From: an uncultured Clostridiaceae bacterium
GTDB taxonomy: Bacteria > Bacillota > Clostridia > TANB77 > CAG-508
NCBI GenBank assembly: GCA_947642455.1
Contig: CANRSN010000002.1
Span: 48,214 to 112,213 of the forward strand
Length of the DNA: 64,000 nucleotides
Direction of reading: 5' to 3'
Of this stretch, positions 10,709 to 26,063 are shown piece after piece. A program made the position numbers and the translations under genes. The notes beneath the pieces are model-generated. The model was not told the origin of the DNA. It did not search any database and worked only from the letters and a program-made list of their open reading frames with translations. The stretch's first letter is position 1. Each line of letters begins with the position of its first letter.

Positions 10709-10752
10709 GTGAATATTTAATCTGTGAAATATAACAAATTGTACTCTTTTTT

Positions 10753-13788: not shown

Positions 13789-15657
13789 ATGAATGAAATA
13801 GTAAAAAAAATAACAGCAGCAGGAGTTGCAACATGTATGGTTGCAGTATTAAGTACAAATACTGTAATGGCATATACAAAGGAGGAAACAGTATATAGTA
13901 GAGTAAAAAATGATGGAGCTACTTATGAGACAATTGTAAATGAACACATAAAAAATAAAAATAATTTAAAAGAAATAAAAGACTCAAGTATTTTAACAAA
14001 TATAGAAAATGTAAATGGAGAAGAAACTTACACAAAACAGGAAAATCAATTAGTATGGAAGGCAGAAGGAAATGACATATATTATCAAGGAAAAACTACA
14101 AAAGAGCTTCCTATAGAAATTAAAATAGTATATAAGTTAGATGGAAAAGAAATATTAGCTCAAGAATTGGTAGGTAAAAATGGAAATGTAGAAATTTGCA
14201 TAAATTTTAAAAATAGAGAAAAACATGAAGTAATTATAAATGAAAAAACTCAAACAATGTATACACCATTTACTATTGTGGCAGGTGCTATATTGGACAA
14301 TACTAAAATGAAAAATATAGAGATTACAAATGGCAAAACTATAGATAATGGAAAAAATACTATTGCAATGGGAATTGCAGTTCCGGGAATGCAAGAAAGT
14401 TTAGCTTTAGATAAAGAAGAATTAGAGATACCAGAGCAAATTACTTTTAAATTTGATACTGAAAATTTTGAAATTGGAGAAGTAATGATATATTGTACTC
14501 CTAAAATTATAGAAGATGAACAAGTTAACCGTTTAGATGAATTAGATGAAATCTTTAAACAAGTAAAAGAATTACAAGATTCTTCAAAACAATTAGTTAA
14601 TGGTGCAAATGAATTAAAAAATGGAGTACAAACTTTAAATGAAAATACATCTACTTTAGAAAATGGGGCAAGTAAGATAGCAGAAGGAACTAGCAAGTTG
14701 GAAAGTGGAAGTAAAACTATTGCAAATAATATGAGTAAAATTACTAGTGGAACAGATAGTTTAGTAAGTGGAGGAAAAAGTCTAAAACAAGGTATTGATG
14801 CTATAAAAAGTCAATTACCAACACAAAAGGAAGTAGCAAAAAGTAAAACAGACTTAAACACACTTAATACAACAAATAGTCAAACTATTAAGAAATTGGA
14901 AGAGACAAATATACAAATAACATCTGAAATTAATTCTAAAATAGAACCACAATTGAAACAATTACAAACTAATATTGCTAATTTAAAAAAACAAATTGAA
15001 GTATTAGAAAAAGCAGGTCAAGATGTAACTACACTAAAAACAACTGTTACAGCACTAGAAACTTCTCAAACAGCTATGTTAACATTAAAAGCAACAATGT
15101 CACAACAAAAAACGGCAAATGAACAATTAATTGTATTATTACAAAAAAATAATGAAGCAGTAATAGCTTCTACTAGTGAATTAGACAGTATAGTTACTTT
15201 AGGAGTAGCTTTAGAGCAAGTTTCAGAAGGTATAGATACTTTGCAAAATGGTGCTAAACAACTTCAAACAGGAAGTAAACAGTTGCAAACAGGAGTAAAT
15301 ACTTTAGCAAGTAGTACAAAAGAATTGTCAGCAGGAGCCAAAACATTATCTAATGGAACAAAGCAATTATCACAAGGAACAAACACCTTGGAACAAGGTT
15401 CTGTTAAATTGTCAGACGGAATGGAAAAATTTGATAAAGAGGGAATTCAAAAAATTGCTAACCTTGTAAATCATGATTTAAAAGATTTAAAAGCACGTAT
15501 TCAAAAGTTACAGGAATTGGCAAATGATTATAAATGTTTTGCACAAGAAAATGATGTAGATATACAAGAATGTGAGCAAATTATAACTAAATTTGTTATT
15601 TTAACAGACGAAATTAAACAAAAAGAGGGAGAAAAAGCAATTCTTCCAAAAGAATAG
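13789..15657 (+). CDS. secreted/anchored coiled-coil protein, YhgE/Pip N-terminal-like
   Basis: N-terminal signal/TM. Repeated L..G...L..G heptad-like motifs (NGANELKNGVQTL, GASKIAEGTSKLESGSK, GAKQLQTGSKQLQTGVNTL) resemble YhgE/Pip. It sits next to the MMPL gene. Confidence 0.45.
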   Translation: MNEIVKKITAAGVATCMVAVLSTNTVMAYTKEETVYSRVKNDGATYETIVNEHIKNKNNLKEIKDSSILTNIENVNGEETYTKQENQLVWKAEGNDIYYQGKTTKELPIEIKIVYKLDGKEILAQELVGKNGNVEICINFKNREKHEVIINEKTQTMYTPFTIVAGAILDNTKMKNIEITNGKTIDNGKNTIAMGIAVPGMQESLALDKEELEIPEQITFKFDTENFEIGEVMIYCTPKIIEDEQVNRLDELDEIFKQVKELQDSSKQLVNGANELKNGVQTLNENTSTLENGASKIAEGTSKLESGSKTIANNMSKITSGTDSLVSGGKSLKQGIDAIKSQLPTQKEVAKSKTDLNTLNTTNSQTIKKLEETNIQITSEINSKIEPQLKQLQTNIANLKKQIEVLEKAGQDVTTLKTTVTALETSQTAMLTLKATMSQQKTANEQLIVLLQKNNEAVIASTSELDSIVTLGVALEQVSEGIDTLQNGAKQLQTGSKQLQTGVNTLASSTKELSAGAKTLSNGTKQLSQGTNTLEQGSVKLSDGMEKFDKEGIQKIANLVNHDLKDLKARIQKLQELANDYKCFAQENDVDIQECEQIITKFVILTDEIKQKEGEKAILPKE

Positions 15658-15662
15658 TACAC

Positions 15663-15691
15663 TTGACATAAATCAAGAAAAATGATAAAAT
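15663..15691 (+). promoter_or_regulatory. sigma-A type promoter (copy 1 of a duplicated promoter plus leader)
   Basis: TTGACA at 15663-15668, 17-nt spacer, TAAAAT at 15686-15691. The following leader of about 85 nt is nearly identical to 17199..17279. Confidence 0.65.
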
Positions 15692-15841
15692 GTGCACATG
15701 TTTTTTTATAATTGCACAATTAACTATAAGTGCAACAAAAATCTAATAATAAAGAAGAGGAGGGAGAAAAGCATAAAAAAACTACATTTATTATTGTTAG
15801 ATTATTTCTAAGATTAAATTTAAGCTAAGAAGGTGAAGCAT

Positions 15842-16780
15842 ATGAAGAAAAAGACTATAAAAGGAAATCGTATAATTCGGTTTCGCAAGCCTCAAGAGAA
15901 CAATAAGCAGGTTTCAGACGAATTTGTAAATGAAGAAAAAATAGTAGAGGAAAAGCCTGAACAAATAACTAAAAAGGAGATAGTAGAGGAAAAGCCTGAA
16001 CAAATAACTAAAAAGGAGATAGTAGAGGAAAAGTCTGAACGAATAACTACAAATGAAATAGTAGAGAAAAAATCTGAGCAGGTAAATACAGAAAAACAAG
16101 GAGAAGAGGAACAAAAGAAAATAAGAAGCCATGAAGAATCTAAAATATATAAAGCATATGAAGAATTAAAAGATACTGTGCAAAATGTTATGTTAGATAG
16201 GCAAACTTCTAATATGATAGGAATTTTCGGAGAAAACGCAGATAATGCTGTCAAAATGCTTTATAGAGAAAGTGGTATTTTAACAAAAGAAAATGAATTA
16301 GGTTATACATTGTATGGTAAAGGAATAGATATATATGATAGGATTGCAGCAGATCTCGAATCTTATATACAAAAACAATTTTCAACAAGTTGGTATTTTA
16401 GTATATATTATCTAATTCAACACGTGTATTCAGATCCAAAAAAGGAGCCATATAGTGAATATGAAGATGAAAAATCAAAAATGAGATTACAAGTAATTAG
16501 ACAATGTCAAAGAGCAATGGATATTTTAGAAATTATTAGTAAGATTAAGCTCAAGGGTCAAATTGATAAATATTTTATCATTGTAGAATTACACAATGTA
16601 GATTGTGATGTATTATATAAACTTTCGAAATTAAATGATTCGAATCTAGTTATAATTGTACATTGTGATCAAAGTATTAGTACTATTAATAAATATATGT
16701 CTTATAACATATATGGAGATTATAGGATGGATGTAATATCTAAGTTTTTTAAATATACAAATTGTATTGAAGCAGTTTAA
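15842..16780 (+). CDS. hypothetical protein, paralogue of 20991..21860, with an acidic 13-aa tandem-repeat insert
   Basis: MKKKTIKGNRIIRFRKPQENN..., KIYKAYEELKDTV, NMIGIFGENADN, YFIIVELHNVDCDVLYKLSKLNDSNLVIIVH align with the second copy. ATG 15842 corresponds to the start of that paralogue. Confidence 0.6.
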   Translation: MKKKTIKGNRIIRFRKPQENNKQVSDEFVNEEKIVEEKPEQITKKEIVEEKPEQITKKEIVEEKSERITTNEIVEKKSEQVNTEKQGEEEQKKIRSHEESKIYKAYEELKDTVQNVMLDRQTSNMIGIFGENADNAVKMLYRESGILTKENELGYTLYGKGIDIYDRIAADLESYIQKQFSTSWYFSIYYLIQHVYSDPKKEPYSEYEDEKSKMRLQVIRQCQRAMDILEIISKIKLKGQIDKYFIIVELHNVDCDVLYKLSKLNDSNLVIIVHCDQSISTINKYMSYNIYGDYRMDVISKFFKYTNCIEAV

Positions 16781-16817
16781 TAAAAAGATTATCGATAAGT
16801 AGGAGAAAATAACAATA

Positions 16818-16866
16818 ATAGACCTTGATGAGCGCAAATTTTGTTAAAAAGAATGAAAATTTAATT
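16818..16866 (+). pseudogene. remnant of a 21871..23100-type gene (5' and 3' ends only; start codon lost)
   Basis: acaataatagaccttgatgagcgcaaatt matches atgataataatagaccttgatgagcggaaatt at 21871. It then joins directly to aatttaattaagtagag, which matches the 3' end at 23093-23110. Confidence 0.7.
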
Positions 16867-16910
16867 AAGTAGAGAATACTTTACCAACAGCGGTAGAGTA
16901 TTTTCTACTT
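16867..16910 (+). terminator. hairpin terminator (duplicate of 23105..23148)
   Basis: aagtagagaatacttta ccaacagc ggtagagtattttctactt. Confidence 0.6.
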
Positions 16911-16933
16911 AAATAGTTACATAATGCATACCA

Positions 16934-17152
16934 GCAAAAAGAGTACAATTTGTTATAATTCATAGTTATTAATTATCTATCTAGGCAATATAATATTTAT
17001 TTTTAGAAGTTTTGCGCAGGGAAGCTCCCACAGTGGACATGACCCAGAGCGATTGGCGAAGCCAGTAAAAAACTTCGACAAAATAAATATTATATTGCCT
17101 ATTGGCTTCTAATTTTAAACTATGAATTATAACAAATTGTGCTCTTTTGCTG
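16934..17152. repeat. nested-palindrome MITE/PATE-like element of about 215 bp, copy A
   Basis: Outer IR: aaaagagtacaatttgttataattcatag / ctatgaattataacaaattgtgctctttt. Inner IR: aggcaatataatatttatttttagaagtttt / aaaacttcgacaaaataaatattatattgcct. The core contains tggacatgac and gccagtaaaaaac. There is no credible ORF. Confidence 0.85.
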
Positions 17153-17169
17153 AATATATACAAAATAAC

Positions 17170-17198
17170 TTGACATAAAATAAGAAGAGTGATAAAAT
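17170..17198 (+). promoter_or_regulatory. sigma-A type promoter of the AAA+/radical-SAM operon (copy 2)
   Basis: TTGACA at 17170-17175, 17-nt spacer, TAAAAT at 17193-17198. Confidence 0.65.
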
Positions 17199-17279
17199 AT
17201 ACACATGTTTTTTTATAGTTGCACAATTTACTATAAGTGTAACAAGAATCTAATAATAAAGAAAAGAAGGGAGAAAAAC

Positions 17280-18866
17280 ATGAAAACACAAACTACATTA
17301 CATCTGGAGGACTATGTTTATGCCGGGTATCCAGCAATTGTGTTGAATACAGCGGAGGAGAAGCGGGCGTTAGAAGAATGCTACAAAATAGCCGAAGAAC
17401 TAAAAATGCAGTTTCTTGTATGGTCAGAAACAAATGGAATTCAAAAGTATGTTGTTGAGCATGGAGAAGAAGGAAATTTAGAGCTTGTAGCCGAAATGGT
17501 AGAAGAAACAGTAGCTCCTGATGAAGACGCATTAAGTAAAGGTTTAGGATATGGAAGTGATGTAATTTACTGTATGTTAGATTTTCATACATATATCAAA
17601 AGCCCATCAGTTTGTAGAAAGGCAAAAGATGTTTTCAAAGAAGCTAAGGATAAAGGAATAGTCTATATTTTCATAAGTAATAGGTTTGATATTCCAGTAG
17701 AATTAGAACACGAAATTATGGTAACTAATCTTGAATTGCCAAAAAAAGAGCAATTACAGGATGTTCTAGTAGAATTATGCAAAATGTACAAAAGGGATAT
17801 TCCTAAAAACATACATGAGGTTTTAGATGCAGCATTAGGTCTTACCTCATATGAAGCAGAAAATGCTTTTGCAACATCACTTTCAAAAACCAACGAATTT
17901 GATACTGACATTATAAATAATGTTAAAAGACAAATTATTTGTAAAGATGGACTGTTAGAATATACGCAATCGAAGGAAACGCTGGAAACAGTGGGCGGAA
18001 TGAAAGAATTTACAAATTATGCCCAAGAAAGGTTTTCTGCATATTCTATAGAGGCACAAGAATATGGCTTACCATATCCTAAAGGTGTACTACTTGTAGG
18101 AATTCCTGGATGTGGAAAAAGTTTAGCTGCAAAAGCACTTTCAAATATGTGGAAAAAACCGTTACTTAAATTAGATTTAGGAAAACTGTTTGGTTCATTA
18201 GTAGGCGATACTGAAGCAAAGACAAGAAAAGCCTTAGAAATAGCAGAAGCAATGTCTCCAGCTATTTTGTGGATTGACGAAATAGAAAAAGGTCTTTCAG
18301 GAGTAGGAAGTAGTGGAACAACAGACTCAGGGGTAACCTCTAGAATGTTTGGAACTATTCTTACATGGCTTCAGGAAAAGGAAGCACCAGTGTATGTAAT
18401 AGCTACTGCTAACAATATTTCTTCTTTACCACCAGAATTTCTACGAAAAGGTAGATTTGATGAAATCTTTTTTGTAGATTTACCAAATGTTGAAGAAAGA
18501 AATGAAATTTTCAAAATACAAATTAAAAAGCACAAAAGAAAGGCAGAAGATTTTGATATTGAAAAGTTAGCAAATTTAACTGATGGATATACAGGAGCAG
18601 AAATTGAGGAATGTGTTATTTCTTCAATGTTCCATGCATGGAATGATGGAAAAAGACCATATACAACTGAAGATTTAGAACTTGCAATTTCAGAAATTAA
18701 ACCCATGTCAAAAGGAATTATGAGCAGTACAGTTAGTGCTTTAAGAGAGTGGAGTGTAAATCATGGTATTAGAAATGCCAATAGTGTTATTAAAAATGTA
18801 AATGATGAAATTAATAAAGAAAAGAATGGCAGGCAGATAAGATTCAAAAAAGAGGAGGAAAAATAA
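17280..18866 (+). CDS. AAA+ ATPase, Ycf46-like (classical AAA clade)
   Basis: Walker A GIPGCGKSLAAKA, Walker B ILWIDEIEK, VIATANN, and the second region of homology PPEFLRKGRFDEIFFVDLP. The start was set at ATG 17280 after GAAGGGAG; the upstream part of the track ORF overlaps the promoter. Confidence 0.85.
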   Translation: MKTQTTLHLEDYVYAGYPAIVLNTAEEKRALEECYKIAEELKMQFLVWSETNGIQKYVVEHGEEGNLELVAEMVEETVAPDEDALSKGLGYGSDVIYCMLDFHTYIKSPSVCRKAKDVFKEAKDKGIVYIFISNRFDIPVELEHEIMVTNLELPKKEQLQDVLVELCKMYKRDIPKNIHEVLDAALGLTSYEAENAFATSLSKTNEFDTDIINNVKRQIICKDGLLEYTQSKETLETVGGMKEFTNYAQERFSAYSIEAQEYGLPYPKGVLLVGIPGCGKSLAAKALSNMWKKPLLKLDLGKLFGSLVGDTEAKTRKALEIAEAMSPAILWIDEIEKGLSGVGSSGTTDSGVTSRMFGTILTWLQEKEAPVYVIATANNISSLPPEFLRKGRFDEIFFVDLPNVEERNEIFKIQIKKHKRKAEDFDIEKLANLTDGYTGAEIEECVISSMFHAWNDGKRPYTTEDLELAISEIKPMSKGIMSSTVSALREWSVNHGIRNANSVIKNVNDEINKEKNGRQIRFKKEEEK

Positions 18867-19423
18867 TGAGTCATTTTACAAAAATAACAGCAGAAATTAG
18901 GGATTTAGACGTTTTAAAACAGGCACTTAAAAAAATGAATTTAACATTAGAGAAAAACACTAATTGTCGGTATTATTATGGGGCAGAAGTAAGAGAAAAT
19001 GTTATAAAGCTTCCAGGAGTGTACGATGTAGCTGTTGAAGCTCAAAGCGATGGAACATATGCTTTAGATGCCGATTTTTATGAAGGGCATGTTGCAAAAT
19101 ATATTGGAGCAAATGGAGAAGAGCTTTTAAGACAATATTCTATCGAAAAGCTAAAAAAAGAAGCAAAAAACCATGGGTATAAAGTGTATGACAAGGGGAA
19201 TGGTATATTAAAGATCCTTGACACAAAAAGAGCAGGTAAAATTGAAATTGAATGTTTACCAAATGGCAAGATTGAAATCAAGACTTCTGAATATAAAGGA
19301 AAGTCATGTATGAACTTTGAAATTATTGAAAAAGCTCTTGGAAGAATTGACAGTACCAAGAAAACACCAGAGTACTATAAGTCAGAAAAGGCTACAGCGC
19401 AGGTACGAATGGAAGTAAATTAG
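18866..19423 (+). CDS. DUF1257-like N-terminal domain fused to a DUF2997-like C-terminal domain
   Basis: MSHFTKITAEIRDLDVLKQALKKMN...YDVAVEAQSDGTYALDADFY recalls the Ycf35/DUF1257 signature. KIEIECLPNGKIEIKTSEYKGKSCMNFEIIEKALG recalls DUF2997. The start overlaps the AAA stop (TAATG). Confidence 0.55.
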   Translation: MSHFTKITAEIRDLDVLKQALKKMNLTLEKNTNCRYYYGAEVRENVIKLPGVYDVAVEAQSDGTYALDADFYEGHVAKYIGANGEELLRQYSIEKLKKEAKNHGYKVYDKGNGILKILDTKRAGKIEIECLPNGKIEIKTSEYKGKSCMNFEIIEKALGRIDSTKKTPEYYKSEKATAQVRMEVN

Positions 19424-19583
19424 ATAAATAATTAATTTTAAAAAATGAAATTGCATTAAAATGCAATTGTTAATAAATATTATACTTAAAAAATTTTAAG
19501 TAATATTATCACATTTTAATGCAATTTCTTTGCTAAAAGTTAATTATTTATAACAGCCTATATATCATGGAAGGAAACATGTA

Positions 19584-20960
19584 ATGAATAAAAAGATTGC
19601 TATAATAATGTGTAATGATATGCACATGGACATAGAACGATCAAACATATTATTAAATTACATTGTACAAAATGAAAGCTATGATATTGTTTGTGATTAT
19701 ACAATTGCAGATATTGTCATTATTCAAACTTGTGCTTTTGGAAAAAACAAAAAATATAGTCTGCAGGTAATAGCAGATGTAAGAGCAAATGTAGCTAATA
19801 CTTGTAGAGTTATAGTAACAGGTTGCTTGGTTTGTGTTAATAAAGACGCATTAGAGGCTATTTCTGAAATTGAAGTAAAAAGTTTTGAAGAAGTAGTAAA
19901 TATGTTCAAAAAGGCTCCCATAGCTTTGTATGAACAAATTATTCCTCAAAACAAAGTAATTATCTCAGAAGGTTGCAGAAAAAATTGTTCTTACTGCGTA
20001 TATCCACTAATTGTTGGCAAATATAAGAGTAAACCAATAGAAGATGTGTTATTAGAAGTTGAAAAATTGCATGAAACAGAAACAGTTATATATATAACTG
20101 GAGCACAAGAGACATCAGATTATGGTATTGACTTATATGGAAAGCCAAGTTTTCCAGAGCTGTTGCAAAAAATTTGCTCACAGTTTCCAGACTGTAACTA
20201 TATTATTGGGTGGTTTCATCCAGCAGGCTTAACAGAAGAGATGCTCTCTATTATAGAAAAAAATAAAAATATAATAGAAGTAATGCTTCATATTCAACAT
20301 GTTAATGAAAGAATCCTTAAAAATATGAATCGACCAACAATGGATTTTACAGATAAAAAGATTCAAAAATTAAGGAAGGTAAGACCAGATTTGGTCATAT
20401 CAACAGAAGTAATAGTTGGTTTTCCAGGAGAAAGTCAAGAAGACTTTGAAGAATTGATAATGTATTTAAGCAAAGGGTATTTTGATGATATAGGAGTGGC
20501 AAGTTATGAGCAAGTTTTAGGAACAAAGGCTTCAGTTATGGAAGATCAGGTTCCAGAAAAAATTAAGGAAGAAAGGCTAAACATTATTCAAAACGTGTTT
20601 AGGGCATGTACATACCCAACCAGCAAGAGTTATAATATGTCAGTTATTGAAGAATATATAAAAGCATATGGATTATTTAAAAATATTCCAAGAAATATTT
20701 TAAATAATAGACAAAAATATAATTTAATAGCTGGGGTAGACACAAAAACTAAAACTGAAGATTTTGAAGAATGTTTAAAAGAAATGTATGAATGTGTTAT
20801 TAATTCAAGAAGTGAGTTTGACTTCAAGAGAAATAAAAAATACTTGAAAGAAAAATACACTTTAGAAGCTAGAACATTTTTCTACCATGTTTTAAAAAAT
20901 GGAAACTTTAAAAATGCAATTAAGCAAAGAGGTAAAGAATTATTATTAGATTATTTCTAA
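19584..20960 (+). CDS. radical-SAM methylthiotransferase, MiaB/RimO/MtaB family, without a recognisable TRAM domain
   Basis: The three N-terminal MTTase cysteines are present (IIMCNDM, IQTCAF, VTGCLV). The radical-SAM motif is CRKNCSYC, followed by GFPGESQEDFEEL. The last 110 aa or so look helical and do not resemble TRAM. Confidence 0.75.
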   Translation: MNKKIAIIMCNDMHMDIERSNILLNYIVQNESYDIVCDYTIADIVIIQTCAFGKNKKYSLQVIADVRANVANTCRVIVTGCLVCVNKDALEAISEIEVKSFEEVVNMFKKAPIALYEQIIPQNKVIISEGCRKNCSYCVYPLIVGKYKSKPIEDVLLEVEKLHETETVIYITGAQETSDYGIDLYGKPSFPELLQKICSQFPDCNYIIGWFHPAGLTEEMLSIIEKNKNIIEVMLHIQHVNERILKNMNRPTMDFTDKKIQKLRKVRPDLVISTEVIVGFPGESQEDFEELIMYLSKGYFDDIGVASYEQVLGTKASVMEDQVPEKIKEERLNIIQNVFRACTYPTSKSYNMSVIEEYIKAYGLFKNIPRNILNNRQKYNLIAGVDTKTKTEDFEECLKEMYECVINSRSEFDFKRNKKYLKEKYTLEARTFFYHVLKNGNFKNAIKQRGKELLLDYF

Positions 20961-20990
20961 GATTAAATTTAAGCTAAGAAGGGGAAGCAT

Positions 20991-21860
20991 ATGAAGAAAA
21001 AGACTATAAAGGAAAATCGTATAATTCGGTTTCACAAGGCTCAAGAGAATAATAATCAGGTTTCAGACAAATATGTAGATGATGAAAAATTAGTAGAAGA
21101 AGAGTCTGAACAAATAAATACAAATGAAATAGGAGAGGGAAAATCCAAGAAGGTAAATACAGACGAGGAAGATGAAGAAGAACAAAATCGAAGAAAAATC
21201 TATAAAGCATATGAAGAATTAAAAGATACAGTAAAAGATGTCATATTAGACAGGCGAACTTCTAATATGATAGGAGTTTTCGGAATAAACGCAGATAATG
21301 TTGTAAATATGTTTTGTAGAAAAAGTGATAGTTTGACAGAAAAAAATTATTTAGGTAAGATATGTTATTCTGAAGCAATGGATATATATAATTCTATTGC
21401 AGCATTACTCATAGAATATGTACAAAAGCAACTTCCACAAAGATGGTATTATGGAAATAATGCAGATTTAGTTGAACAAATTGAAAATGTATATGTAAAT
21501 CCTAATGAAGATTTGAGTAATGAGTATTCAACATTAAGAGGCTTATCAAAAATATCCAAAAAGTACCAAAGAGAACGGAATATTTTAGGAATTATTAGTA
21601 ACTTAAAGAGAATCAATACTGGAATTAACAAATATTTTCTCATTGTGGAATTAGAAGATTTGAATTATGATGTATTGAATAAACTTTCGAAATTGGATAA
21701 TTCAAATCTAGTTATAATTGTACATGCTTTGTATAGAACTGATAGTATTGATGAAGATATATTGTTTAAGTTTTTTACATATAAAAATTGTATTAAGGCA
21801 GAAGGAATAATAAGACGAAAAAAAGCTCAAAAGAAGCAAAAAAATTATTGTTGTTGTTAA
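20991..21860 (+). CDS. hypothetical protein, paralogue of 15842..16780; ends in ...KNYCCC
   Basis: 289 aa, collinear with the first copy. It has an acidic N-terminal region, NMIGVFGINADN and YFLIVELEDLNYDVLNKLSKLDNSNLVIIVH. Confidence 0.6.
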   Translation: MKKKTIKENRIIRFHKAQENNNQVSDKYVDDEKLVEEESEQINTNEIGEGKSKKVNTDEEDEEEQNRRKIYKAYEELKDTVKDVILDRRTSNMIGVFGINADNVVNMFCRKSDSLTEKNYLGKICYSEAMDIYNSIAALLIEYVQKQLPQRWYYGNNADLVEQIENVYVNPNEDLSNEYSTLRGLSKISKKYQRERNILGIISNLKRINTGINKYFLIVELEDLNYDVLNKLSKLDNSNLVIIVHALYRTDSIDEDILFKFFTYKNCIKAEGIIRRKKAQKKQKNYCCC

Positions 21861-21870
21861 GGAGGAAAAC

Positions 21871-23100
21871 ATGATAATAATAGACCTTGATGAGCGGAAA
21901 TTCTATCAAAATGAAGAGCCAGCTAATTTTGGAAAAACGAAGTTTATAGAAATGTGCAAAGAGTATTTTAAGCAATTTTATCAAGATGAAACTATAATAA
22001 AATTAATAAAAGAAATGCAAGATGAAATATTATATACAGTGCAAGGGGATAAAGTGTTTTTAGTAGTAAAAAATGAAACAATGTATTGTATAAATGATAC
22101 TTATCCCATAAAGATATGTAAATTTGAAGAAAATTTATATGGCATAAAAGATACTGCACATAAGGTTTTTCAAGAATGTTTTGAAGACTGTTTTCCTAGA
22201 TTTAAAAGACTAATACTAGGTTATAAACAATGGAACGAAAAAGACATAAAATCAATACCTACTATCGATGTAGATATAGGGAGTCATAAGGATTTTGAGG
22301 AGTATATTAATGAATTTAAAGAAATTATTAAAGATATACTACTCACAATACTAAAAGGAGATTTATGTGATAAAGTATGTTCTGAAATTGTGGAAGCATA
22401 TAAAAGCAACATTCTAGAAAATAATCCTATTCTAGTATTGGTGAAAAAATGTGAAAATGCTAAAGAGATCTATAGTAAAGGAATATATGTAATTACAGAA
22501 AAACTAGAAGTAAAAAAAGTATCATATTTTGTTCTTGAAGGAGAATTAGAGCAAATAATAGGTAAGGTAATGCCAAAAGACAAAGCTCTTTTAGTAAATC
22601 CAATATATAATTACATACAAGTATTTTCAAGGAAGGTAAAACCAATTATTAGAGTTAATAAATTATATCCTGAAGGAGTAAGTGCTATATTATCTTTTTA
22701 CAACGAAAACCAGACACCAATAGTTATAAAATATGGAGCTGGATGTTGTTATGCGCTTTTGCCTTATCATCGTAATTGGAGTGTAAATCCTTTCAATATT
22801 AATATAGAAGAAGATAAGGAATACGATGAAACTTTAATTTTTAATGAAATGAAAGCAATAGATAAAGGTAGATTCAAAGATGTAGAGTGTTATGTTATGT
22901 CACAAACAAAAAAATATGAAAACACTAAGATTGAAATGCCTGAAGTACTTGAAAACAATGTACTATATAAATTAGAAAAAGAAGAATTGAAAGTCATACC
23001 GGACACACCAGATGACAGATTTACAGCTAGGAATAATATTTTCAGTAAGCGTGAAATCTATATGTTATGTAAACTTAATATTAAAGGAATAGGAATTTAA
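21871..23100 (+). CDS. hypothetical protein (409 aa), no recognisable family
   Basis: Good RBS (AAGGAGG), long ORF, last gene before the terminator. Confidence 0.55.
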   Translation: MIIIDLDERKFYQNEEPANFGKTKFIEMCKEYFKQFYQDETIIKLIKEMQDEILYTVQGDKVFLVVKNETMYCINDTYPIKICKFEENLYGIKDTAHKVFQECFEDCFPRFKRLILGYKQWNEKDIKSIPTIDVDIGSHKDFEEYINEFKEIIKDILLTILKGDLCDKVCSEIVEAYKSNILENNPILVLVKKCENAKEIYSKGIYVITEKLEVKKVSYFVLEGELEQIIGKVMPKDKALLVNPIYNYIQVFSRKVKPIIRVNKLYPEGVSAILSFYNENQTPIVIKYGAGCCYALLPYHRNWSVNPFNINIEEDKEYDETLIFNEMKAIDKGRFKDVECYVMSQTKKYENTKIEMPEVLENNVLYKLEKEELKVIPDTPDDRFTARNNIFSKREIYMLCKLNIKGIGI

Positions 23101-23104
23101 TCAA

Positions 23105-23148
23105 AGTAGAGAATACTTTACCAGTAGTGGTAGAGTATTCTCTATTTT
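23105..23148 (+). terminator. hairpin terminator of the operon
   Basis: agtagagaatacttta ccagtagt ggtagagtattctctatttt. Confidence 0.6.
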
Positions 23149-23356
23149 CTTATACAATAGGAAAGTCATACGGACTTTTCCTATTGTATAAAAAGCTTCG
23201 CAAATATTGTGCACAAATTTTTAAAAAAATTTGGCACAGAACAAATTTACGGAAAGCCAAAGAGAAAAGTTAAAGTTATGCTAATTTAAAGGCTTTCCGA
23301 TTTGTTCGTATATAAAAGCTTTGCCAAACGTCCCACACAAAATTGCTAATATAAAA

Positions 23357-23371
23357 TGATAATTATTATCA
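23357..23371. promoter_or_regulatory. perfect 7-1-7 Fur-type box (distal)
   Basis: TGATAATtATTATCA, embedded in aaaaTGATAATTATTATCAtttt. Confidence 0.6.
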
Positions 23372-23611
23372 TTTTATATTAAATGCCACTGGAAACAGTT
23401 AGAAAATAAGCGTTTTTAGAAAACGGAAAAAGTTAATGTAATAATTTTGTAACAAAAATGCAATAAAATTGTAATAAAAAAATACAACTTAGTTATATCA
23501 ATATATCTAAAAAAGAGTTTGCCAAAAAAACATACTGTAAAAAAAAGGAAATTCCATAAAACAAGCTATATATCAATAAAATATGCTAGTGTATACATAA
23601 AGACTACATGT

Positions 23612-23640
23612 TTGACATTATATTTTTTCTAGTATAATAT
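23612..23640 (+). promoter_or_regulatory. candidate nrdD promoter
   Basis: TTGACA at 23612-23617 and tagTATAATat at 23630-23640. The spacing is 15-17 nt depending on which -10 register is used. Confidence 0.45.
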
Positions 23641-23690
23641 ATGGGTGTTTCCAATTAGAATTTATTAAAAATTCTTAAAAACTTCAAAAA

Positions 23691-23705
23691 TGATAATAAT
23701 TATCA
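23691..23705. promoter_or_regulatory. perfect 7-1-7 Fur-type box (proximal, between promoter and nrdD start)
   Basis: TGATAATaATTATCA, embedded in aaaaTGATAATAATTATCAttttt. Confidence 0.6.
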
Positions 23706-23771
23706 TTTTTGGAGTAAAAACTAGGAAACAAACTAAATTAAAACAAAAAAGTAATATAGGGGGAATATTAA

Positions 23772-26063
23772 ATGCAAGTAATTAAAAGAGATGGAAGATT
23801 AGCAGAATTTAATCCAGAAAGGATTGTAAAAGCAGTAACACTAGCAATGTCACAAACACCAGGAGGTGTAGATATAGATTTAGCCAACAAAATAGCAGAA
23901 GGTGTAAGAAAGCAAATTGAAGATAAAAATCAAACAACAGTATATGAAATACAAGACTTAGTAGAAAAAAAATTAATGGCATCAACAAGAAAAGAAGTTG
24001 CACAAAATTATATTACATATAGATATAACAGAGATGTTGCAAGAAAATCAAGAACAAAAGAGATGTTTTTAGAAATAATAGAAACAAAGTCAAATGATGT
24101 AACAAGAGAAAATGCAAACATGAATGCAGACACACCAGCAGGAATGATGATGAAATTTGCATCAGAAACAACAAAACCATTCGTAGATGACTTCTTATTA
24201 TCACAAGAAGCAAGAGAAGCATTTCAAAAAGGCTATATACATATACATGACAAAGATTATTATCCAACAAAATCTCTAACATGTTTGCAACATCCATTAG
24301 ATAAAATATTAGAAAATGGATTCAGAGCAGGACATGGAGCATCAAGACCAGCAAAAAGAATAGAAACAGCAAGCATACTAGGTTGTATATCAATGGAAAC
24401 TGTACAAAACGAAATGCACGGAGGACAAGCTATACCAGCATTTGACTACTATTTAGCACCATATGTTAAATTAACATTTAAAGAAGAACTTAAAAAAGTA
24501 GAAGAAATAGTTGGAAAAGATTTATCAGACTTATACGATTATCAACCAGAAGACTATATTAAAAAAGATTTAAAAGGACTAGAAGGAAAAGAAAGAGACA
24601 TACAAGCAGCAATAAATAATACAGTTTCAAGAGTACATCAATCAATGGAAGCATTTATACATAATATGAATACAATACATTCAAGAGGTGGAAATCAAGT
24701 TGTATTTAGTTCAATAAATTATGGAACAGACACAACTCCAGAAGGTAGATGTATAATAAGAGAAATACTTCTTTCAACAGAAAGAGGAGTTGGAAATAAT
24801 GAAACACCAATATTTCCAATACAAATTTGGAAGAAAAAAAGAGGAGTAAATTATTTACCAGAAGACAGAAACTATGACTTATACAAATTATCATGTAGAG
24901 TAGCAGCAAAAAGGTTTTTCCCAAACTACATAAACTTAGATTCAACATTTAATAGTCATGAAAAATGGAAAGCAGAAGATCCAAAAAGATACATGTATGA
25001 ATGTGCAACAATGGGTTGTAGAACAAGAGTATTTGCAGATAGACATGGAGAAAAAACATCAGTAGGAAGAGGAAATTTATCTTTTTCAACAGTAAACTTA
25101 GTAAGAATAGCAATAGAATCAGCATATGAAGCACAAGAACAAACAGGAGTAAAATTTGTATTAGGTAGAGGTAGCGAAGAGAGTATGACACCAGCATACA
25201 AAAAGGCAGTTAAAAAAATATTTATGCAAAAATTAGAAAAATATTGTGATATAACAGCAAGACAATTATACGATAGATATAAATTCCAATCTACAGCAAT
25301 AGCAAAACAATTCCCATTACTAATGAGTGGCTTATGGGTTGGAAGTGAAAACTTAAAACCAAACGATAATATATCATCAATAATAAAACATGGAACTTTA
25401 GGACTTGGATTTATAGGCTTAGCAGAATGTTTAACAGTTATTACAGGAAAACACCACGGAGAATCAGAAGACTCACAAAAATTAGGGTTAGAAATAATTG
25501 GCTTAATACATGAATGTTGCGCAAATTATTCAGATAGATATGACTTAAACTATTCAGTATTAGCAACACCAGCAGAGGGCTTAGCAGGTAGGTTTACAAA
25601 AATAGATAGAAAAGAATTTGGAACAATATTAGGAGTTACAGACAGAGATTATTATACAAATTCAAACCATGTACCAGTATGGTATAAATGTACAGCAGAA
25701 CATAAAGCAAAAATAGAAGCACCATATCATGCAATGACAGAAGGTGGTCATATATTCTATATAGAATTAGATGGAGATGCAACACATAACCCAGAAAGTA
25801 TAGAAGCAGTAGTTGATTTAATGGATAAATATAACATGGGGTATGGAAGTGTAAACCATACACGTTCAAGATGTATGGACTGTGGCTTTGAAAACTCTGA
25901 TGCAGATTTAAAAGAATGCCCAGTATGTGGAAGTAAAAATATAGATACAATTCAAAGAATAACAGGTTATTTAGTTGGAACAACATCTCGTTGGAATAGT
26001 GCTAAACTTTCAGAATTAAATGATAGAGTAACACATGTAGATGGTGGAATAGCAGGAAAATAA
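23772..26063 (+). CDS. nrdD: anaerobic ribonucleoside-triphosphate reductase (class III)
   Basis: N-terminal ATP-cone (VIKRDGRLAEFNPERI), a C-terminal Zn ribbon CMDCGF...CPVCGS, and the glycyl-radical motif RITGYLVG. Confidence 0.95.
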   Translation: MQVIKRDGRLAEFNPERIVKAVTLAMSQTPGGVDIDLANKIAEGVRKQIEDKNQTTVYEIQDLVEKKLMASTRKEVAQNYITYRYNRDVARKSRTKEMFLEIIETKSNDVTRENANMNADTPAGMMMKFASETTKPFVDDFLLSQEAREAFQKGYIHIHDKDYYPTKSLTCLQHPLDKILENGFRAGHGASRPAKRIETASILGCISMETVQNEMHGGQAIPAFDYYLAPYVKLTFKEELKKVEEIVGKDLSDLYDYQPEDYIKKDLKGLEGKERDIQAAINNTVSRVHQSMEAFIHNMNTIHSRGGNQVVFSSINYGTDTTPEGRCIIREILLSTERGVGNNETPIFPIQIWKKKRGVNYLPEDRNYDLYKLSCRVAAKRFFPNYINLDSTFNSHEKWKAEDPKRYMYECATMGCRTRVFADRHGEKTSVGRGNLSFSTVNLVRIAIESAYEAQEQTGVKFVLGRGSEESMTPAYKKAVKKIFMQKLEKYCDITARQLYDRYKFQSTAIAKQFPLLMSGLWVGSENLKPNDNISSIIKHGTLGLGFIGLAECLTVITGKHHGESEDSQKLGLEIIGLIHECCANYSDRYDLNYSVLATPAEGLAGRFTKIDRKEFGTILGVTDRDYYTNSNHVPVWYKCTAEHKAKIEAPYHAMTEGGHIFYIELDGDATHNPESIEAVVDLMDKYNMGYGSVNHTRSRCMDCGFENSDADLKECPVCGSKNIDTIQRITGYLVGTTSRWNSAKLSELNDRVTHVDGGIAGK

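Follow-up and report, generated by a model that had tools for sequence, protein, structure and literature searches.

Which substrate would a methylthiotransferase (MTTase) modify once its TRAM domain is gone and its gene is found, locus after locus, behind that of an AAA ATPase? This question is raised by an operon of five genes on the + strand (17280-23100), with a sigma-A-type promoter before it and a terminator hairpin of 21 bp behind it, in DNA from an uncultured Clostridiaceae bacterium (assembly GCA_947642455.1, contig CANRSN010000002.1); the stretch analysed, 64,000 nucleotides (nt) in length, is referred to as the window, and all coordinates are its own. The initial annotation of this DNA had proposed a single promoter, five packed genes and a single terminator, and the open reading frames (ORFs), a conserved promoter and the hairpin were all found. 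Gene 1 (17280..18866) encodes a classical-clade AAA ATPase of 528 aa; gene 2 (18866..19423) a fusion of DUF1257 (Ycf35-like) and DUF2997 of 185 aa; gene 3 (19584..20960) a RimO-like radical S-adenosylmethionine (radical-SAM) MTTase of 458 aa without TRAM; gene 4 (20991..21860) a protein of 289 aa in which a basic N-terminal motif and an acidic disordered linker precede a probable degenerate AAA+/STAND-like P-loop domain; and gene 5 (21871..23100) an orphan protein of 409 aa, restricted to close relatives. On near-identical contigs from metagenome-assembled genomes (MAGs), public gene calls give products of 528, 185, 458, 289 and 411 aa. As of 2023, tRNA and ribosomal protein S12 were the only known substrates of MTTases, a three-domain family that includes TRAM (PMC10702137). 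A third substrate class, or a new manner of substrate presentation, is suggested by an MTTase clade that has replaced TRAM and is tied to an AAA ATPase. The reading favoured here, with a probability of roughly 35%, is that the operon encodes a module in which an AAA ATPase assists a radical-SAM enzyme that modifies protein, and in which clients or adaptors bear an N-terminal tag.

The product of gene 3 matches the Pfam models UPF0004 (5.8e-7, 29.9 bits against a cut-off of 27) and Radical_SAM (9.4e-19), and its six cluster cysteines (C10, C50, C81, C131, C135 and C138) are all conserved. Among 25 diverse relatives, C10 and the three residues of the CxxxCxxC motif (C131, C135, C138) are invariant, and C50 and C81 are conserved in at least 90%. 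TRAM is not found in gene 3 even at E<=1 in the Pfam scan, nor is there a precomputed TRAM match among its 120 best relatives, whereas TRAM is recovered at 4.5e-9 when a canonical MiaB from a relative is scanned likewise as a positive control. The six cysteines and the missing TRAM, both of which had been read from the sequence at the outset, are thereby borne out. The alignment of gene 3 to the RimO model and structure ends near residue 340-350, and TRAM is replaced by a family-specific tail of ~110-120 aa with conserved Y344, D386, K390, R409 and K443, for which a sequence search of the PDB returns no relative. RimO is the best-scoring curated family (TIGR01125, 212.1 bits), with the MiaB and MtaB models at 139-153 bits, and gene 3 stays below the curated cut-offs of both TIGR00089 (202.8 against 251 bits) and TIGR01125 (212.1 against 357 bits). 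Similarly, its best relative in the PDB is 4jc0 (RimO), at 2.5e-41 over residues 25-330, with MiaB at 4e-23. The family comprises more than 100 full-length relatives of ~455 aa, down to ~44% identity, all from uncultured Clostridia or metagenomes, and public records label it only as "radical SAM protein". The contig of locus L010 also encodes a canonical UPF0004-Radical_SAM-TRAM protein (MiaB) adjoining mutS. Judged by its sequence, gene 3 encodes an MTTase paralogue that lacks TRAM, resembles RimO most, and is extra rather than the only MTTase of its lineage.

The association of this enzyme with its neighbours extends far beyond the window. One genome for each of 185,579 species was scanned with two family-specific MTTase peptide patterns (CNDMHMD and HIQH), which matched only 51 stretches, giving 26 loci, a lower bound set by the patterns used. 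All 26 lie in MAGs of uncultured gut or rumen Clostridia, including Clostridium sp. CAG:245, and in all 26 the AAA and DUF genes are found directly upstream of the MTTase gene. The AAA-DUF-MTTase trio is also present on the metagenome contigs L006/L007, L009 and L040/L041, and the L040 DUF protein is 29% identical to that of the window. In most loci the start and stop codons of the core genes overlap or abut. The coupling of AAA, DUF and MTTase genes is not due to chance. It had been considered from the beginning that gene 3 might be the sole MTTase of the organism, placed here by accident; the adjacency of the trio in 26/26 loci and the canonical MiaB on the L010 contig both contradict this. 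The expectation that all five genes would be conserved together is borne out in part: the trio is present in all 26 loci and relatives of gene 4 in most, while gene 5 is confined to close relatives.

Gene 1, taken for a classical AAA ATPase from the start, indeed matches Pfam AAA (3e-28) and AAA_lid_3, and contains a Walker A motif (GIPGCGKS, residue 274), a Walker B motif (LWIDEIEK, residue 330) and RKGRFD at residue 389. With Walker A, Walker B and arginine-finger region present, the ATPase looks catalytically intact. Its nearest solved relatives are the D2 domains of p97/Cdc48 (1e-53), and its N-terminal domain of ~230 aa has no relative in a sequence search of the PDB. Gene 1 is 41% identical over residues 9-501 to the AAA protein of locus L044, which has separate DUF1257 and DUF2997 genes nearby, and it matches phrog_8638 over its full length (1e-122). 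Members of this AAA family, N-domain included, are encoded by a Corndog-type mycobacteriophage (L037, gp96) and by the Streptococcus satellite phage Javan368 (L036); in these two records, no DUF1257 gene lies beside the phage AAA gene.

Gene 2 starts on the TAATG overlap with the end of gene 1, as had been claimed, and the two domains assigned to it both score above cut-off, DUF2997 at 5.8e-9 (36.1 bits against 24.1) and DUF1257 marginally (22.5 bits against 22.2). The marginal match is backed by a phmmer search: of the 423 matches in 1.84 billion representatives, most are Ycf35-like proteins of ~125 aa, many of them at E 1e-15 to 1e-8, and ~20 are full-length fusion clusters; the three ~125-aa matches that were looked up, single proteins on short contigs, all carry PF06868 (DUF1257). 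In the gene 2 alignment the Met-Ser-His N-terminus of DUF1257 is nearly invariant, and the GxxC cysteine is present in all DUF2997-bearing sequences shown; no cluster-binding motif (at least three Cys) is found in gene 2. The AlphaFold model has a mean predicted local distance difference test (pLDDT) score of 94.3 and a beta-alpha-beta4-alpha followed by a beta4-alpha-beta topology. A fold search of PDB and BFVD with this model yields nothing at E below 0.001, the weak matches being TBP, the RnlA N-domain and the spermine-synthase N-domain, and a sequence search of the PDB with gene 2 gives nothing significant. As a separate observation, free-standing DUF2997 proteins (L043, 727-915; L044, 984-1184) start with a basic strand (VNRRILVKV, LKKIEVVI) similar to the motif at the N-termini of accessory proteins described below.

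The genes that follow the trio behave quite differently. Between the same pairs of genomes, identities are 72-74% for the AAA protein, 63-67% for the DUF protein and 67-73% for the MTTase, compared to 30-36% for gene 4 and 28-32% for gene 5; the accessory proteins diverge at two to three times the rate of the core. Most loci contain relatives of gene 4, frequently as sets of two to four paralogues (up to four in L024). Gene 5 is restricted to close relatives, and elsewhere unrelated cassettes take its place, such as the c8-c6-c9 coiled-coil proteins, Zn-ribbon proteins, or four to six BspA-type leucine-rich repeat (LRR_5) proteins (L027-L029). In L009, five uncharacterised genes are inserted between the DUF and MTTase genes. 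The LRR_5 paralogues, which come from rumen MAGs (L027, 9122-14682; L028; L029), have no obvious signal peptides; L028 and L029 are separate contigs that belong to one MAG, RUG770, so either two operon copies or two mixed strains are possible. In several species the locus is followed by the same genes, asnB and rpmF, although the accessory cassettes there differ; the core is thus a stable part of the chromosome to which a changing set of genes is appended. It is flanked by housekeeping genes (nrdDG, asnB, rpmF, miaB-mutS, rpoBC, prfA), and the spore-coat operon cotJA-cotJB-cotJC (Mn catalase) is found beside the locus in three arrangements (L006/L031, 13752-14988; L023, upstream of the AAA gene; L030, from ~15326 onwards). 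The notion of an accessory, fast-evolving locus thus applies to the accessory genes (28-36% identity), but not to the core, which is 63-74% identical, sits between housekeeping genes and is not mobile.

Gene 4 has no family match in Pfam, PADLOC, curated-family or PHROG scans. In its AlphaFold model, residues 1-58 are disordered and residues from about 60 to 275 form a confident alpha/beta domain, the underlying alignment having only nine rows; homologue searches returned four proteins from the single sequence and seven from a 29-sequence profile, and were limited by the word index. The fold of this domain matches those of STAND/AAA+ NTPases, with RdrA as the best match (E 8.5e-6, probability 1.0), followed by NB-ARC, CED-4, Cdc6 and Sir3. 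Gene 4 contains no Walker A GK[ST] motif and no conserved Walker B acid. The initial annotation had suspected an inactivated P-loop in gene 4, and this idea gains support because the model matches a STAND/AAA+ fold and the sequence lacks Walker A; the globular part is therefore predicted to be a degenerate AAA+/STAND-like P-loop fold. The three terminal cysteines to which attention had been drawn are present (NYCCC), but they are specific to the strain, as the closest relative ends in NLWCC, and a functional role for this tail was rejected for lack of conservation. Gene 5 has four residues that are invariant over nine relatives, H97, C103 and C107 (ECFxxC) and C340, which may form a metal or cluster site. 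Searching the PDB by sequence with the gene 4 and gene 5 profiles gave nothing significant. Profile-profile comparison links neither gene 5 to family c9 nor gene 4 to the LRR family c4, and the only links it finds among accessory families are c6/c38, c43/c53 and c49/c50.

What several of these unrelated accessory proteins appear to have in common is their N-terminus. That of gene 4 contains a basic motif, NRIIRF, of the R-x-I-x-F type, and in an alignment of 29 members of the gene 4 family R10, which lies inside the motif, is the sole invariant residue, with I12 nearly invariant. Similar N-terminal peptides are present in unrelated families, namely in all c9 proteins (MKKRNIHF, MAKRRIIVE, MPRKIQF), in c156 and in c253, as well as in four L009 proteins (RVIRKE, RVVRQE, RIIRKQ, RIIRKE) and in the upstream ORF of L040 (IKRQIIF). 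The proteins that bear the motif are 137-465 aa long and have folded domains. Counted per protein, the motif is found in 29/145 accessory proteins compared to 6/201 other ORFs of the same loci (p 2e-7); counted per family, in 9/42 compared to 8/189 (p 8e-4), and two of the eight control families are L009 operon genes. This suggests a signal that is real but not yet secure.

Taken together, these properties can be accommodated in the following mechanism. In the partners (gene 4, its paralogue and the analogous families elsewhere), a disordered linker would be headed by a short basic peptide at the N-terminus, and it is through this peptide that they would bind to the core; the most plausible docking site is either the DUF1257-DUF2997 protein or the N-domain of the AAA ring. 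The ATPase would then engage or remodel the docked partners, and the MTTase would act on protein and not on tRNA, the substrate being either the partner itself or a target that it brings. At an unreactive carbon of this substrate the enzyme would insert a methylthio or other sulfur-based group. This proposal builds on the domain content of the operon, the loss of TRAM, the co-conservation and tight spacing of the trio, the turnover of its partners, the fold of gene 4 and the common motif. A broader version, in which the Ycf46-like AAA and the DUF adaptor form a protein-remodelling and modification machine that recruits diverse clients by the basic peptide, the RimO-like enzyme modifies protein, and the whole possibly serves immunity, is more doubtful.

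Several points weigh against the proposed mechanism. Strong unfoldases carry an aromatic pore-loop residue, and the gene 1 AAA has a Leu at this position (SLVG, residue 306). The MTTase relative of L008 (44% identity) stands alone, without an AAA gene. Conversely, L044 has an AAA/DUF1257/DUF2997 neighbourhood without an MTTase, as do cyanobacteria, and the function of the core pair is therefore independent of methylthiolation. The motif is short, occurs in a proteome rich in Lys, Arg and Ile, and its statistics are dominated by one family; moreover, gene 5, the c6/c8 families, the LRR_5 paralogues and the Zn-ribbon families do not have it. Finally, complex formation, the binding target of the motif, the protein substrate and the chemistry are all inferred.

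The control elements of the operon are conserved as well. Its promoter (17170..17198, + strand), TTGACA-17-TAAAAT with an extended -10 (TG), matches the consensus at 11/12 positions. Such a match alone proves nothing, because the scan gave 68 promoter-like sites compared to 74 in shuffles, but this promoter type is kept 5' of the AAA gene in 13/20 non-redundant related loci, as opposed to 8/117 control upstream regions, and is aligned across species. A 5' leader of ~80 nt follows on the same strand (17199..17279), with hairpin arms at 17218-17224 and 17237-17243, a conserved CTAATAATAA box at 17250-17259 and a Shine-Dalgarno sequence. This order of hairpin, (C/U)UAAUAAUA box and Shine-Dalgarno sequence is conserved at the same position in L006, L009, L010, L015, L019-L021, L024 and L034. 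The hairpin was scored leader by leader, since the RNAalifold consensus on a MAFFT alignment was poor; it is present in 10/10 non-redundant leaders tested (mean z -3.3, 8/10 below -2), with stem sequences that vary by species. The AAUAAUA (AATAATA) box is found in 13/20 leaders compared to 8/117 controls (p 2e-8). No Rfam family matches the leader, and an Rfam scan of 15000-24000 gave nothing credible. The leader looks like an operon-specific cis-regulatory element and may be a cis-regulatory RNA. Within the operon, Shine-Dalgarno sequences precede genes 2, 4 and 5, and the gaps between genes 3 and 4 and between genes 4 and 5 are 30 and 10 nt. The spacer between genes 2 and 3 holds an AT-rich 128-nt palindrome, each arm being 40 nt long (19424..19551, + strand; -36.1 kcal/mol, z -6.8), of which the window contains no second copy; as genes 2 and 3 abut or overlap in most related loci, it looks like an insertion, or like a processing or stability element. 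The operon ends in an intrinsic terminator hairpin of 21 bp (23103..23148, + strand; -28.1 kcal/mol, z -8.8), followed by UUUUCU.

Immediately upstream lies what had been described as a decayed duplicate. It turns out to be a duplicated mini-operon on the + strand (15661..16912), which comprises a copy of the promoter and leader (15661-15793, 85% identical to that of the operon, with the leader part at 15692-15775), an intact gene 4 paralogue (about 15842-16780, its protein 55% identical to gene 4), a remnant of gene 5 (16789-16853, the first ~15 codons, about 45 nt) and a copy of the terminator hairpin (16865-16912). The description as decayed thus fits gene 5 only; as the gene 4 copy is intact and the promoter and leader have been copied with it, this is a second gene 4 paralogue under the same control and not merely decay. 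The linker of the paralogue (15942-16154) contains three tandem 39-nt repeats that encode the unit EEKPEQITKKEIV in an acidic stretch, so that the linker evolves in length as repeats are added. The duplicate is separated from the promoter of the operon by an element resembling a miniature inverted-repeat transposable element (MITE; 16937..17148), which the initial annotation had also reported and which has 39-nt terminal inverted repeats (16937-16975 and 17110-17148) that are 90% complementary and 134 nt apart. A third terminus-like copy is found at 10720-10750, 6 kb upstream. On the other side of the operon, the anaerobic ribonucleotide reductase genes nrdD and nrdG are preceded by two perfect TGATAATnATTATCA palindromes (23357-23371 and 23691-23705), one of which lies just 3' of a TTGACA-17-TAATAT promoter at 23612-23640. 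By a 7-1-7 consensus, these palindromes are presumably Fur-box-like.

The same observations have been weighed against other explanations. That gene 3 is an ordinary miaB, rimO or mtaB gene standing by chance beside unrelated genes is already contradicted, and its likelihood is close to nil: UPF0004, Radical_SAM and the six cysteines are as in ordinary MTTases, but TRAM is missing, the score falls below every curated cut-off, the neighbourhood is kept in 26/26 loci and a relative has its canonical MiaB elsewhere. The proposal of a conflict or defence system, which the initial annotation had also raised, is stronger, if still unlikely, and is compatible with the mechanism outlined above; here the trio would be the effector or executioner, the accessory proteins (gene 4 with its pseudo-STAND domain, LRR_5 paralogues, Zn-ribbon and coiled-coil proteins) would be sensors or decoys for molecules of phages or competitors, and the radical-SAM enzyme would make or modify a toxic or protective molecule. 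The swapping of accessory genes between species, their multiplication (four gene 4 paralogues in L024, four to six LRR_5 genes in L027-L029) and their identities of 28-36% next to a core of 63-74% speak for such a role, and are joined by the structural match of gene 4 to the RADAR ATPase RdrA, and then to NB-ARC and CED-4, by the match of the AAA to IetA models (4e-23), by the occurrence of the AAA family in phages and a Streptococcus satellite, and by the local duplication and MITE-like element in the window. Yet PADLOC fits nothing except a generic AAA (IteA 64 bits compared to 510), no nuclease, protease, deaminase or membrane effector is recognised in the operon, and the flanks are housekeeping genes instead of defence islands. 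The core is well conserved and apparently vertical at a shared site in several species, and its strong, conserved sigma-A promoter suggests routine expression.

The dependence of the MTTase on two [4Fe-4S] clusters allows for yet another function of its neighbours, in which the AAA/DUF pair, as a dedicated chaperone or as a redox or sulfur-relay partner, would load, repair or reduce these clusters, the MTTase would modify tRNA or the ribosome by means of its new tail, and the accessory proteins would be passengers or regulators. Consistent with this idea, in cyanobacteria the ferredoxin gene fed7 lies in a cluster with DUF2997 and ycf35 (DUF1257) genes (PMC4284462), and red-algal plastids keep or lose ycf35 and ycf46 together with ycf34 and pbsA, for which iron availability has been discussed (PMC5940233). 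The GxxC cysteine of DUF2997 and the Met-Ser-His of DUF1257 could bind metal or carry a persulfide, and trios without an MTTase make the AAA/DUF pair the older unit, of which the MTTase could be one of several clients. However, gene 2 has no cluster-binding motif of at least three Cys, and its fold matches no known Fe-S carrier or ferredoxin in PDB or BFVD. The canonical MTTases of related genomes function without such helpers, and the loss of TRAM, the fast-evolving neighbours and the common N-terminal motif are left unexplained. Such a service function is distinctly unlikely. A developmental or structural module, such as a part of the spore coat, with accessory proteins as structural components that are remodelled or cross-linked by the core, is very unlikely. 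The presence of cotJA-cotJB-cotJC beside the locus in three arrangements (L006/L031, L023, L030) and the abundance of coiled-coil and low-complexity segments in the accessory proteins would fit it, but the promoter has the sigma-A consensus and is not of a sporulation-sigma type, the cotJ adjacency is limited to few loci and could be ancestral synteny, and no known coat or exosporium family is matched.

New here are the adjacency of the trio in 26 loci, the separate canonical MiaB, the split in rate between core and accessory genes, the common motif and the conserved leader. If the AAA-assisted, protein-directed modification module is real, tRNA and S12 would no longer be the only known MTTase substrates, and the operon would provide the first biochemical handle on the unexplained Ycf46/Ycf35/DUF2997 trio, a trio found widely among cyanobacteria and plastids and under strong stress regulation, with an Fe-S radical enzyme as a concrete partner. 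If confirmed, an N-terminal peptide common to unrelated, fast-evolving proteins would constitute a new bacterial targeting signal. As its hosts belong to the gut communities of humans and animals and are uncultured, this system is invisible to classical genetics. In the published literature, no link was found between DUF1257 or DUF2997 and a radical-SAM enzyme, nor between an MTTase and anti-phage defence.

Among characterised enzymes, RimO provides the obvious comparison, as it is the sole MTTase known to act on a protein (Asp88 of ribosomal protein S12). Like RimO (TIGR01125, PDB 4jc0), gene 3 has a UPF0004 domain with three Cys and a radical-SAM core with CxxxCxxC. It differs in its private tail in place of TRAM, in a score far below the cut-off of 357, in the motifs CNDMHMD and HIQH, and in its genetic context, as an AAA ATPase and a DUF1257-DUF2997 protein are encoded beside it in all 26 genome loci. 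With MiaB and MtaB it shares the superfamily and the cluster ligands, but it scores only 139-153 bits, lacks TRAM, and coexists in a relative with a separate canonical MiaB beside mutS. A RimO-YcaO pair was considered as a precedent for an ATP-using helper and dropped, as recent work assigns E. coli YcaO to the thioamidation of uL16. Membership in a cluster for ribosomally synthesised and post-translationally modified peptides (RiPPs) with a radical-SAM maturase was rejected as well, since the motif proteins are folded and 137-465 aa long and the enzyme has no SPASM or RRE Pfam match; the analogy with RiPPs is confined to the idea of a common N-terminal recognition peptide.

Resemblances to defence systems are limited to single domains. 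Among PADLOC models, none fits the operon proteins except for a generic match of the AAA to IetA. This match, to IetA models of the IetA-IetS (Iet) system at 4e-23, is confined to the ATPase domain. The NCBIfam model IteA scores 64 bits compared to a cut-off of 510 and the operon encodes no IetS-type protease domain, and membership in Iet was rejected on both counts. The globular domain of gene 4 shares its fold with RADAR RdrA and with STAND/AAA+ NTPases (NB-ARC, CED-4, Cdc6), but unlike RdrA it belongs to a protein of 289 aa without Walker A or a conserved Walker B acid, at ~10% identity. RADAR was likewise rejected, the likeness being one of fold only, with no RdrB deaminase in the operon and no PADLOC match.

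Two further ATPase systems can be compared. Cofactors of Cdc48/p97 dock by short basic linear motifs (the p97-binding motif VBM, of the RRRRLxxF type), and accessory N-termini such as MARRRILF and MIRRKIIF recall these, just as the gene 1 AAA is nearest to the D2 domain of p97/Cdc48; this likeness is taken as a lead only, and differs in that the gene 1 AAA forms a single ring whose N-domain is unrelated by sequence to anything solved. The second is the trio of Ycf46, Ycf35 (DUF1257) and DUF2997 of cyanobacteria and plastids, which in cyanobacteria forms a stress-induced operon of unexplained function (bioRxiv 10.1101/2025.07.21.665879). As in this trio, a classical AAA with a long N-domain is encoded beside DUF1257 and DUF2997, full-length orthology of the AAA having been judged against the L044 AAA. 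What distinguishes the operon described here is that the two DUFs are fused, that an MTTase and variable accessory genes have been added, and that its hosts are anaerobic gut Clostridia.

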